From the sequence record NC_052658.1: 64,000 nucleotides of DNA; one strand, given 5' to 3'. The notes under the pieces were generated by a model. The model made no database searches, was not told the DNA's origin, and worked only from the letters and a program-made list of their open reading frames with translations. Below are positions 53,806-58,206 of the stretch, one piece after another; position 1 is the stretch's first letter; the number at the start of each line of letters is the position of its first letter. Position numbers and translations under genes: made by a program. The DNA comes from Escherichia phage nepoznato.

Positions 53806-55746
53806 TTAACCACCAGTGTTAGATTGTCCACTTAGAGTTGAAAGAGACAAACGTTGGAAAATGCTATTTCCGCTATTTTGAATTCTTGCATCAAGAATAT
53901 TTCCAAACTCTGAAGAAGGGCTGATCGTAACTTTGATAAGATCACTTGGTATTGCTACCGTATTCTCAACAACAGGTTGATTACGAGCCAAACTTACGTT
54001 AGGTGTATAGGCTGATTCACGTAAATCTTCAAGAGGATTACCAAATCCAAAAGCACGTGTCCTTGTTTGTTCTCCTCTCCACATACGACCAATATCTTGT
54101 GTATCAATACCTGTTAAATTGTACAACCAATCTGCTACAGGATTGCTGTCTCCACTTTGCGTTGCCTCGTATGCTTTTTGTGCCATAGATTTATTAGGAT
54201 CTGTGTTATCTCCGAATGTATCTGGGAATGTTTCTTTAAGCCAATTGGTAAAAGATCCGAAACCATCTCCCAATTCTTTAGCAAAACCTCCTAATTGAAC
54301 TGTTGTCTTACCGAGTTCTTCACCTAAATCTTTGGCAAACTGATCTAGCACTTTAACATTATCCAACCAAGAATCATCTTTAGGTAAGGCTTTCACAAAA
54401 CCCTCTAAGAAGTGGTTCTGCATACCTTGACCTACAAGCTGAACTGTTGCAGCAAAACGAGTAAACTCTTTAGAAGCATCTATTTGTTCTTGAGTTAATG
54501 TTGCACCTGTTCTTTGAAGCATTTTCAATACTTCATTATACCCTTCGCCGTTTTTACTAAACATACGTTGGTAGTGCATAAGGTCATCACCAAGGTTTTC
54601 AAGAAGTCGCCCGATTTGAGCAGAGTTCATACCTCGACGCTCACCTTCATTAACAGTAGCCTGAATAAAAGCTAAAGGATCGTTCTGTAAAGGTTTAAGC
54701 TGTTCTGGATTCCATCCAAACAAGTTCATAATGTCATTTATGCCATTATCACCGCCTTTCCACTTCCCTTCTTTCTCATTCCATTTTGAGGCTAAAACTG
54801 TATTACCAAGACGTTCACGAACGTCTTTAATATTATCTATTGACTTAATAATATTTGCAGAGTCTACACCGTTCTGTTCACCCCAAGCTGTCATTGCCAA
54901 AATAGCGTTGGCGTTTGTCTGAACGTTTTCAGCACCACGACTTACAAGTTTAATTCTTTCGTTAGTATTCATCAACGTGTTACCAACTACAGAACCACCT
55001 GCAAACAGCCCAGCACCTATTAAAGAGGATGCAATCATGCGTGGATTAAGACCTGCTGCACCTTCTTTTAATTGTCCATATCGACGATCACGATCACGTT
55101 TTTGTTGAGCTAATTCACGCTTACGGTTGCGTTCTATATCTCTAAGTTCACGATTTCGCATACGTATACGCATTTTAGCTTCTGCTTCTAGCTCTCTACG
55201 AATACGGCGACGACCGCGAACCTCGTCTTCTATTTCAGCATTCTTTTCACGATGAGATCTGCGTAAGGCATCTAACTGGTGAGCAAGAGCTTGGTTCATA
55301 CGTTGAAGAGTTATTTCACCCTTTTTGTATTGCTCTACAGCTTTACCCATAACGTCTCTAGCTTCTTGCATAGCGCCAGGACTGGCTTTACTAAATGCTC
55401 TTGCTCGATAGTTAAAGTTCTGCAAACGAAGATTACCTAAGTCTTCCCTACGTGCTGCTGCTTTAGCTTCGCGTTCAGCAGCTTTACGAGCTTTTTCTTC
55501 TTCTCTTCCTTGCGGGGTTTTAGGAGTTCTAGGTCTGCCAGATCCGCCTACAGGAGCACCCGCTCCAGCGGGAGTAGGTGCTCGCATAGGTTTTTGACTT
55601 TGAGTTTGAGCTTTCTTAAGTTCACGCTCAATCTCTTTCATTTGTTGTCTAAACTTGGTCATGTTCATAGTGGGTTGCATTTTATTTGCAAACTTCTGAA
55701 CACTCAACACGGCATCTTTTGCTTCCTTGAGACTGTTCTTGTCCAC
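53806..55746 (-). CDS. Tail tape measure protein
   Basis: 646 aa; long N-terminal Arg/Glu-rich coiled coil, central hydrophobic segment MIASSLIGAGLFAGGSVVG; downstream of the frameshifted chaperone. Start is GTG with an SD almost adjacent, so the exact start is uncertain. Confidence 0.65.
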   Translation of the reverse strand: MDKNSLKEAKDAVLSVQKFANKMQPTMNMTKFRQQMKEIERELKKAQTQSQKPMRAPTPAGAGAPVGGSGRPRTPKTPQGREEEKARKAAEREAKAAARREDLGNLRLQNFNYRARAFSKASPGAMQEARDVMGKAVEQYKKGEITLQRMNQALAHQLDALRRSHREKNAEIEDEVRGRRRIRRELEAEAKMRIRMRNRELRDIERNRKRELAQQKRDRDRRYGQLKEGAAGLNPRMIASSLIGAGLFAGGSVVGNTLMNTNERIKLVSRGAENVQTNANAILAMTAWGEQNGVDSANIIKSIDNIKDVRERLGNTVLASKWNEKEGKWKGGDNGINDIMNLFGWNPEQLKPLQNDPLAFIQATVNEGERRGMNSAQIGRLLENLGDDLMHYQRMFSKNGEGYNEVLKMLQRTGATLTQEQIDASKEFTRFAATVQLVGQGMQNHFLEGFVKALPKDDSWLDNVKVLDQFAKDLGEELGKTTVQLGGFAKELGDGFGSFTNWLKETFPDTFGDNTDPNKSMAQKAYEATQSGDSNPVADWLYNLTGIDTQDIGRMWRGEQTRTRAFGFGNPLEDLRESAYTPNVSLARNQPVVENTVAIPSDLIKVTISPSSEFGNILDARIQNSGNSIFQRLSLSTLSGQSNTGG

Positions 55747-57457: not shown

Positions 57458-58206
57458 TCAAACAAGTTTCTTAAACAAATCTGACATTTTATTTGTCTGG
57501 TTTTGATGTTTTCTCTTTATTGAAGTGTCTTTAACATACATGGCTTCAACATACTCTTCGTATGTTAAATACTCATATAGTTTTAAAAGATAATCTACAC
57601 CGTAGTTATCTAATGTTTTCAGTGTTTCCGAGGTATCTTTAACGACTTTGCAAAGAATAACCTCATACCACTTCAAAGTAAGGGTTTTCGTTGCTGTGTC
57701 GATAGCATGTTCAATCGCAGGTGTTAATTTGCTGCTAAACTCGTCATCGCCTGAAGCTGTGTGAACAGTTTTCCGAAACCTCGTTTGAAAAAAGGGCCGT
57801 AGTTTACCTCCAGAACTTTAGCAGTAAGATCTAACACTAGTTCTGGGTGAGCCATAAATAATTCATCAAAATTTTCTGCAACGTTATAACCGTCTTGGGT
57901 ATAAACCTCATCTAAAATTTTACGCAAAAAGACCGTTAAATTCTTTTCTTCCAAACCTGCAAAAAGTTGAATCAGTGCCATAGCAATACGTGACTCAAGG
58001 TCTTCGTCTGCGGACATTGTTGCTGTGCTATACATAGTCATAGGAACAACCAGAACACTACCCAATTCTGGAATCCTGTCAAACACTTTAGATGGACTCC
58101 ACTTCATAATACGGAAAGTAACAGATCTGTTTCCATCTAACGGAATCTCAACTACTTCTTCTGGTCGAGCATATTTTTGAATTGTGTTATCTTGTTCTTG
58201 TGACAT
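57458..58206 (-). CDS. Tail assembly chaperone, -1 frameshift fusion product (gpE+E' / gpGT analogue)
   Basis: Slippery heptamer C-CCT-TTT on the minus strand (plus coordinates 57796-57790) in the 0 frame; the -1 frame is open from there to the stop at 57458 and runs into the listed 57458..57676 ORF with no intervening stop. Confidence 0.55.
57724..58206 (-). CDS. Tail assembly chaperone (short, in-frame product; P2 gpE / lambda gpG analogue)
   Basis: 160 aa ORF between tube and tape measure; GAGAGGA SD; contains the slippery site near its 3' end. Confidence 0.6.
   Translation of the reverse strand: MSQEQDNTIQKYARPEEVVEIPLDGNRSVTFRIMKWSPSKVFDRIPELGSVLVVPMTMYSTATMSADEDLESRIAMALIQLFAGLEEKNLTVFLRKILDEVYTQDGYNVAENFDELFMAHPELVLDLTAKVLEVNYGPFFKRGFGKLFTQLQAMTSLAAN

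Follow-up and report, generated by a model that had tools for sequence, protein, structure and literature searches.

The tail assembly chaperone gene of Escherichia phage nepoznato (NC_052658.1) was analyzed within a 64,000-nucleotide stretch of the genome, referred to here as the window. The tail genes and their neighboring features lie on the minus strand. Comparison of this gene with its relatives argues that a programmed −1 ribosomal frameshift very probably yields a 249-amino-acid fusion protein of the G-T type beside the 160-amino-acid chaperone. The initial annotation had proposed such a shift from the one sequence, and it stands as the best-supported reading, with the comparison of 53 related loci providing a far stronger argument than the single sequence. 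Phages of the phAPEC8 type (genus Phapecoctavirus, subfamily Stephanstirmvirinae) are 99.5 to 99.7% identical to this region.

Results

Two overlapping slippery heptamers in the chaperone gene

The short, G-like form of the chaperone is encoded at 58206-57724, with a TAA stop at 57726-57724, and matches the Pfam family Phage_TAC_15 (PF21822). A sequence search of the Protein Data Bank (PDB) with the chaperone profile gave a single marginal match, 5ir0 (E=0.036). Within this gene, the decamer C CCU UUU UUC (CCCTTTTTTC, 57796-57787) holds two overlapping heptamers, both of which are in the X XXY YYZ phase when counted from the ATG at 58206. These are C CCU UUU (57796-57790) and U UUU UUC (57793-57787), the latter lying 3 nucleotides (nt) downstream and sharing 4 nt with the former. 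The chaperone codons at this point read GGC CCT TTT TTC, and the distance to the chaperone stop codon is 70 nt for C CCU UUU and 67 nt for U UUU UUC.

In the −1 frame, a TAA at 57820-57818 is followed by an open stretch that starts at 57817 and ends with the TGA at 57460-57458. This stretch passes through a 72-amino-acid open reading frame (ORF) with a TTG start (57676-57458), which is listed as a separate gene and corresponds to the hypothetical protein gp105 of phAPEC8. The T-like extension comprises 112 codons, those of the slip site included (57796-57458), and together with the 137 preceding residues it gives a fusion of 249 amino acids. The phase of C CCU UUU within the 160-amino-acid ORF, the absence of a stop codon between this heptamer and 57458, and a fusion of about 249 amino acids had all been put forward in the initial annotation, and each was confirmed by counting and translation. 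Slippage on either heptamer would lead to an identical protein, ...GPFFQTR... (VNYGPFFQTRFRK), for which the predicted tryptic peptide across the junction is VLEVNYGPFFQTR.

Both heptamers belong to the H_HH.U_UU.Y class, which is among the most efficient in E. coli, and both give more than 0.1% frameshifting without any stimulator (PMC4066793). No tRNA genes were found within the window.

Conservation of the slip site in related phages

The comparison covered 13 annotated GenBank loci, 39 IMG/VR loci and one Aeromonas phage, making 53 loci with 41 distinct sequences. These represent the Stephanstirmvirinae, the Vequintavirinae and Plateaulakevirus, with chaperone identities to the window down to approximately 25 to 30%. 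All 53 loci carry U UUU UUC unchanged and in phase. In every one of them the −1 frame is closed until 1 to 7 codons before the U-run and then open for 103 to 130 codons; the +1 frame is not open in the related loci. The predicted fusions of the relatives range from 241 to 252 amino acids.

The heptamer C CCU UUU is confined to Stephanstirmvirinae-like loci, all of which keep it. The corresponding codons are TGT TTT TTC in the Vequintavirinae and AGT TTT TTC in the Aeromonas phage and one Serratia phage. The heptamer singled out in the initial annotation as the slip site, C CCU UUU, is therefore in phase and retained throughout the Stephanstirmvirinae, but the deeply conserved heptamer is U UUU UUC.

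The codon choice at this position is fixed. Phe139 is encoded by TTT and Phe140 by TTC in all 40 sequences compared, and the control invariant phenylalanine codons are mixed (Phe31, TTC in 23 and TTT in 17; Phe117, TTC in 30 and TTT in 10). The codon before TTT TTC encodes proline, cysteine or serine across the lineages, always with T as its third base. Similarly, the codon before CCT in the clade of the window is GGC, GCC or TCC (glycine, alanine or serine), always with C as its third base. Since the preceding amino acid varies yet the third base stays C, the C CCU UUU heptamer also looks selected, although only locally in the subfamily to which the window belongs.

One of the loci is that of Aeromonas phage 4L372D (NC_048771.1; locus L055, 1836-2228), a Plateaulakevirus that falls outside both subfamilies and carries an in-phase AGT TTT TTC. 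In this phage the −1 frame becomes open one codon ahead of the heptamer, extends for 130 codons, and ends in a recognizably related domain. The presence of the signal in this phage argues that it predates the two subfamilies of E. coli phages.

Protein-level selection on the −1 frame

The extension has a common layout, made of an Arg-Phe-Arg motif, a variable linker rich in glycine and serine, and a conserved C-terminal domain of approximately 70 amino acids. It matches phrog_16039 (E=1e-44) and its Vequintavirinae counterpart phrog_10409 (E=3e-9). The predicted structure of the T part alone has a pLDDT of 48 and is not usable.

Substitutions were counted by −1-frame codon position in the region downstream of the chaperone (G) stop codon. 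The differences at positions 1, 2 and 3 amount to 2020, 1509 and 2999 among the Stephanstirmvirinae-like sequences, and to 3147, 2608 and 5449 among the Vequintavirinae-like sequences. In the same region, synonymous single-base changes in the −1 frame outnumber the nonsynonymous ones.

Closer to the slip site, where the −1 frame overlaps the chaperone gene, the Arg-Phe-Arg motif (AGG UUU CGG, 57781-57773) starts 5 nt past the heptamer. It is kept in 14 of 15 distinct variants by way of synonymous arginine codons (AGG/CGG; CGG/CGC/CGA/AGG), and the overlapping residues of the 0 frame vary (Phe to Leu; Gly/Ala/Glu). The base changes in question are synonymous for the motif but alter the protein of the 0 frame, which argues that the −1 frame is translated at this point and that the shift takes place upstream of it. 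The −1 frame is thus already in use no more than three codons past the U-run. The constraint on Arg-Phe-Arg, taken together with the −1 frame of the Aeromonas phage that opens one codon before the heptamer, pins the shift to the U-run. Like the anatomy, phase and conservation of the site, protein-level selection on the −1 frame right after the U-run is directly observed in the aligned sequences.

The same data bear on whether the downstream ORF could be a gene of its own, translated from the TTG at 57676 or by reinitiation after the chaperone stop codon. This arrangement is what many records imply, given that they list a separate hypothetical protein, as for phAPEC8 gp105 (locus L001, 5125-5343), FV3_00050, Av05_0089, SSE121 gp030 and others, and a TTG is indeed available in the window. 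However, this TTG lacks a ribosome-binding site and lies within the conserved domain, which translation from it would truncate. Among 40 relatives, the −1 ORF shows neither a conserved start codon nor a conserved ribosome-binding site; at least 14 of the 40 have no ATG, GTG or TTG ahead of the conserved domain, and a ribosome-binding site occurs in only one or two cases. Public gene calls for the homologues of the 72-amino-acid ORF use at least seven different starts, giving proteins of 52 to 84 amino acids, and the records of alia, Hena1 and SF1-1 leave the −1 stretch without annotation. Moreover, the coding conservation of the −1 frame reaches upstream across the supposedly intergenic stretch and the overlap as far as the U-run, and two independent genes would leave the fixed slippery codons unexplained. 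Separate translation is therefore very improbable, and we read the 72-amino-acid ORF as the 3′ part of the frameshift product and not as a gene.

Expectation by chance

The slip motif by itself is unremarkable; its context, by contrast, is far outside what chance would give. The window has one copy of the decamer CCCTTTTTTC against 0.28 expected, with at least one copy in 25 of 100 shuffles, and approximately 19,300 window codons hold 86 in-phase X XXY YYZ heptamers. With heptamers this common and the decamer present in a quarter of the shuffles, one could imagine that the heptamer and the open −1 frame are a functionless coincidence, and that the 160-amino-acid protein alone matters. The continuation of the −1 frame at each site was compared heptamer by heptamer. 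Six other efficient heptamers are in phase in genes of the window, and at these the −1 frame meets a stop after 2 to 15 codons; among the efficient in-phase heptamers of the window, only the chaperone site opens onto 111 to 112 codons. Given that stops in the −1 frame occur at 0.106 per codon, a run of 111 open codons has a probability of approximately 4e-6. The heptamer-by-heptamer control took the place of one based on how far the −1 frame runs past the stop of each gene, which was uninformative, with neighboring genes in the same frame dominating the distribution. Considering that the arrangement is kept in 53 of 53 loci from three lineages, that the synonymous positions of the slip site are frozen, and that the −1 frame is under protein-level selection, coincidence is hardly credible.

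Candidate stimulatory elements

A downstream stimulatory structure, which the initial annotation had recommended looking for, was not found in stable or conserved form. The fold of a 121-nt segment taken from the slip site has an energy of −19.4 kcal/mol against a shuffle mean of −20.95 kcal/mol (z=0.5). Two consensus folds, one built from 11 Stephanstirmvirinae-like sequences and the other from 15 Vequintavirinae-like sequences, had energies near zero (−0.25 and −2.74 kcal/mol), with no useful covariation near the site. Small hairpins around GGUUUCG were seen by eye and set aside; their registers differ between the two clades and they are absent in the Certrevirus-like group.

On the 5′ side, a Shine-Dalgarno-like GGAGG (57811-57807) lies inside the chaperone gene, 10 nt upstream of C CCU UUU and 13 nt upstream of U UUU UUC. 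The spacing at which such sequences stimulate −1 shifts is 9 to 14 nt (PMC5009743). GGAGG, GAGG or GGAG is found at that position in 20 of 28 distinct contexts. Because the motif also encodes a conserved Glu-Val, a role for it as a stimulator is only a suggestion, and we regard it as a candidate.

A second slip position was also considered. The GGU UUC in the invariant GGTTT block contains an in-phase U_UUC, and it was rejected as the main slip site because FV3 (GGT TTA) and locus L035 (GGT TTG) keep the −1-frame phenylalanine and arginine while changing the 0-frame residue.

Ribosomal versus transcriptional slippage

An identical 249-amino-acid protein would result from normal translation if RNA polymerase added one U at the T6 run. 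The invariant core of the site is a homopolymer run, as such slippage would have it, and long U or A runs are avoided in E. coli genes, possibly due to slippage of this kind (PMC4066793). TTTTTTC is likewise depleted in the window: counting both strands, there are 18 copies, where shuffles that preserve dinucleotides give 30.0 ± 4.6. Several features of the loci nonetheless stand against this explanation. None of the 53 loci departs from a run of exactly T6, and the known cases of transcriptional slippage in bacteria typically involve approximately nine or more identical bases (A or T). The T6 run always occupies the X XXY YYZ phase, to which a polymerase would be indifferent. In addition, the subfamily of the window fixes the upstream C CC despite the amino acid change, and this matters only for re-pairing in the ribosomal P site. 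We therefore consider insertion by the polymerase quite unlikely, and a shift made by the ribosome remains the preferred explanation.

Genomic neighborhood of the chaperone gene

The gene order in the window is sheath (60151-58778), tube (58731-58252), chaperone, −1 ORF and tape measure, the last ending at 53806, with a 1.3-kb endonuclease gene inserted before the tape measure gene. In phAPEC8, only 20 nt separate the stop codon of the −1 ORF from the start of the tape measure gene. The position between tube and tape measure genes that had been ascribed to the chaperone in the initial annotation is thus correct in that the chaperone sits between the two, but the endonuclease gene comes first on the downstream side and the tape measure gene that follows is split by an intron. 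The interval between the tube and chaperone genes holds a terminator-like hairpin (58246-58227) with an 8-pair stem followed by a T-run, which is annotated as a terminator in phAPEC8. This hairpin may reduce the transcription or expression of the chaperone gene, and of the tape measure gene, relative to that of the tube gene.

Compared with phAPEC8, the window has 1,686 nt (57459-55774) in place of 43 nt. A promoter-like site (57461-57433; TTGACT, 17 nt, TATACT, with TG; 10 of 12 matches) lies immediately before the endonuclease gene and starts right at the stop codon that ends the chaperone extension. The endonuclease gene is a free-standing, homing-endonuclease-like ORF of 438 amino acids (57405-56089) that contains five CapR-domain stretches and weaker matches to DUF723 and T5orf172, and it matches phrog_681, "endonuclease". 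Its TAG stop overlaps codons 2 and 3 of the tape measure gene.

The tape measure gene is interrupted by an intron of 301 nt (56076-55776) that scores 92.9 bits with the group I model of Rfam (RF00028; gathering score, 50) and begins 19 nt into the gene when counted from its TTG start. Splicing in silico (56095-56077 joined to 55775-53806) restores a tape measure protein of 662 amino acids that is identical to that of phAPEC8 at 661 of 663 aligned positions, which indicates that the listed 646-amino-acid ORF with a GTG start is an artifact of the intron. The intron has no ORF of its own and is adjoined by the endonuclease-like gene. It is absent from phAPEC8 and from the IMG/VR near-twin L016, and is approximately 77% identical to introns of Pseudomonas phages. 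For the endonuclease and intron cassette, no phage record was found at the megablast level. The inserted cassette may bring its own promoter. The pairing of a free-standing endonuclease gene with a neighboring intron resembles what is called "collaborative homing", and this pair may be of more interest to researchers of mobile introns than the frameshift itself.

Discussion

From the conservation of the U-run and the coding constraint that follows it, we infer that the shift is ribosomal and that the fusion is produced. Most ribosomes would remain in the 0 frame up to the TAA at 57726-57724 and give the short chaperone of 160 amino acids. A minority would move one base back on C CCU UUU UUC (57796-57787), with tRNA-Phe in the A site and tRNA-Pro or tRNA-Phe in the P site re-pairing one base upstream. 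Having shifted, these ribosomes would stay in the −1 frame until the TGA at 57460-57458 and give the 249-amino-acid protein. This long form would consist of the N-terminal 137 to 140 residues of the chaperone followed by Arg-Phe-Arg, the variable linker and the conserved domain of approximately 70 residues. By analogy with gpG and gpGT of lambda, the short and long chaperones would both form a coat on the tape measure protein, with the long one using its extension to recruit the tube protein, and neither would remain in the virion.

Several points weigh against a programmed ribosomal shift at this site. There is no stable or conserved structure downstream of it, and the efficiency of frameshifting may therefore be low. 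The upstream Shine-Dalgarno-like motif is absent in 8 of 28 distinct contexts. The fixed TTT TTC could in part reflect a dual-coding constraint and not selection for slipperiness, although such a constraint would itself mean that the −1 frame is read there. Ribosomal slippage and the insertion of one U by RNA polymerase are inseparable by sequence alone. In the literature on this phage group, no proteomic or reporter data for the fusion were found, and a joined coding sequence (CDS) is absent from every GenBank or RefSeq record inspected. Searches of a database of 5.8 billion proteins with the fusion and with the T part as queries returned neither a full-length fusion nor a natural in-frame G-T fusion. 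No specific paper was found on a frameshift in phAPEC8, rV5, phi92, PVP-SE1, Phapecoctavirus or the Vequintavirinae, and no mention of a chaperone is made in the paper on rV5 proteomics or in that on the phi92 structure.

The arrangement follows that of the lambda G/GT genes, which is conserved among long-tailed phages (Levin 1993; Xu, Hendrix & Duda 2004, 2013, 2014, as summarized in PMC5009743). As in lambda, two overlapping ORFs lie between the major tail or tube gene and the tape measure gene, the long form is the chaperone with a C-terminal extension, a strong 3′ structure is not needed, and the role presumed by analogy is the coupling of the tape measure protein to tube polymerization. 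In contrast with lambda, where the heptamer is G GGA AAG, the window has U UUU UUC and C CCU UUU, its chaperone belongs to another sequence family (PF21822) in a 150-kb contractile-tailed phage, and an endonuclease gene now stands between the chaperone and tape measure genes. The E and E+E′ proteins of phage P2 are reportedly produced by a −1 shift on a T-rich heptamer in a tail chaperone gene that lies between the tube and tape measure genes. P2 would share with the phages studied here the contractile tail and the enterobacterial host, and would differ in its protein family and phage lineage.

A closer parallel in gene position was proposed in December 2025 for the TAC-N and TAC-NC proteins of the Vandenendeviridae (Pakpunavirus) and Andersonviridae, with a −1 frameshift at an invariant GTTTTT (PMC12846349). 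The chaperone loci analyzed in that work are those of the Vandenendeviridae and Andersonviridae only, and not those of the Stephanstirmvirinae or Vequintavirinae. In these related myovirus clades the gene occupies the same position, all genomes keep the −1 frame open, misannotation of the downstream part as a hypothetical protein is routine, and the evidence is purely comparative, as it is here. In contrast with GTTTTT, the clade of the window has CCCTTTTTTC, with no G before the T-run.

Two other frameshift systems resemble this site in individual elements. Gene 10A/10B of T7 (G GUU UUC) also relies on E. coli ribosomes, an A-site motif of the UUU UUC type and tRNA-Phe, but it encodes a capsid protein, has an imperfect P-site triplet and needs a distant 3′ element (PMC5009743). 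The E. coli dnaX gene shifts on A AAA AAG with the help of a 5′ Shine-Dalgarno-like element and a 3′ hairpin (PMC5009743). The GGAGG at 10 and 13 nt in the window may be a counterpart of the internal Shine-Dalgarno-like sequence that lies 9 to 14 nt upstream in dnaX; unlike dnaX, the window has no 3′ hairpin at the site and another heptamer, and its Shine-Dalgarno-like element is only partly conserved.

A more far-reaching reading, which we regard as speculative and rather doubtful, is that these loci hold an ancient cassette independent of structure. In it, an invariant U UUU UUC would be set in a conserved Asn-Tyr-x-x-Phe-Phe/Arg-Phe-Arg context in at least three large lineages of myoviruses. 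The tandem C CCU UUU UUC of the Stephanstirmvirinae would then offer two consecutive chances to slip, and a 5′ Shine-Dalgarno-like contact or the nascent peptide, and not a 3′ structure, would determine how efficient the shift is. If true, −1 frameshifting with few stimulators on E. coli ribosomes would have a compact natural model in these loci.

This type of frameshift is very well known, and what is new is an unannotated case in this phage group, with the site pinned to a single invariant heptamer; no new principle is added. A structure-free U UUU UUC site that is kept across three lineages is of modest interest in itself. The practical consequence concerns the hundreds of public genomes of phages like phAPEC8, phi92, rV5 and PVP-SE1, many of them candidates for therapy, in which the second half of this gene is listed as a stray hypothetical protein with arbitrary starts. 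The fix would be to annotate one joined CDS with ribosomal slippage. For the biology of these phages, the finding would extend to two more subfamilies the rule that nearly all long-tailed phages make two forms of their tail chaperone by frameshifting.

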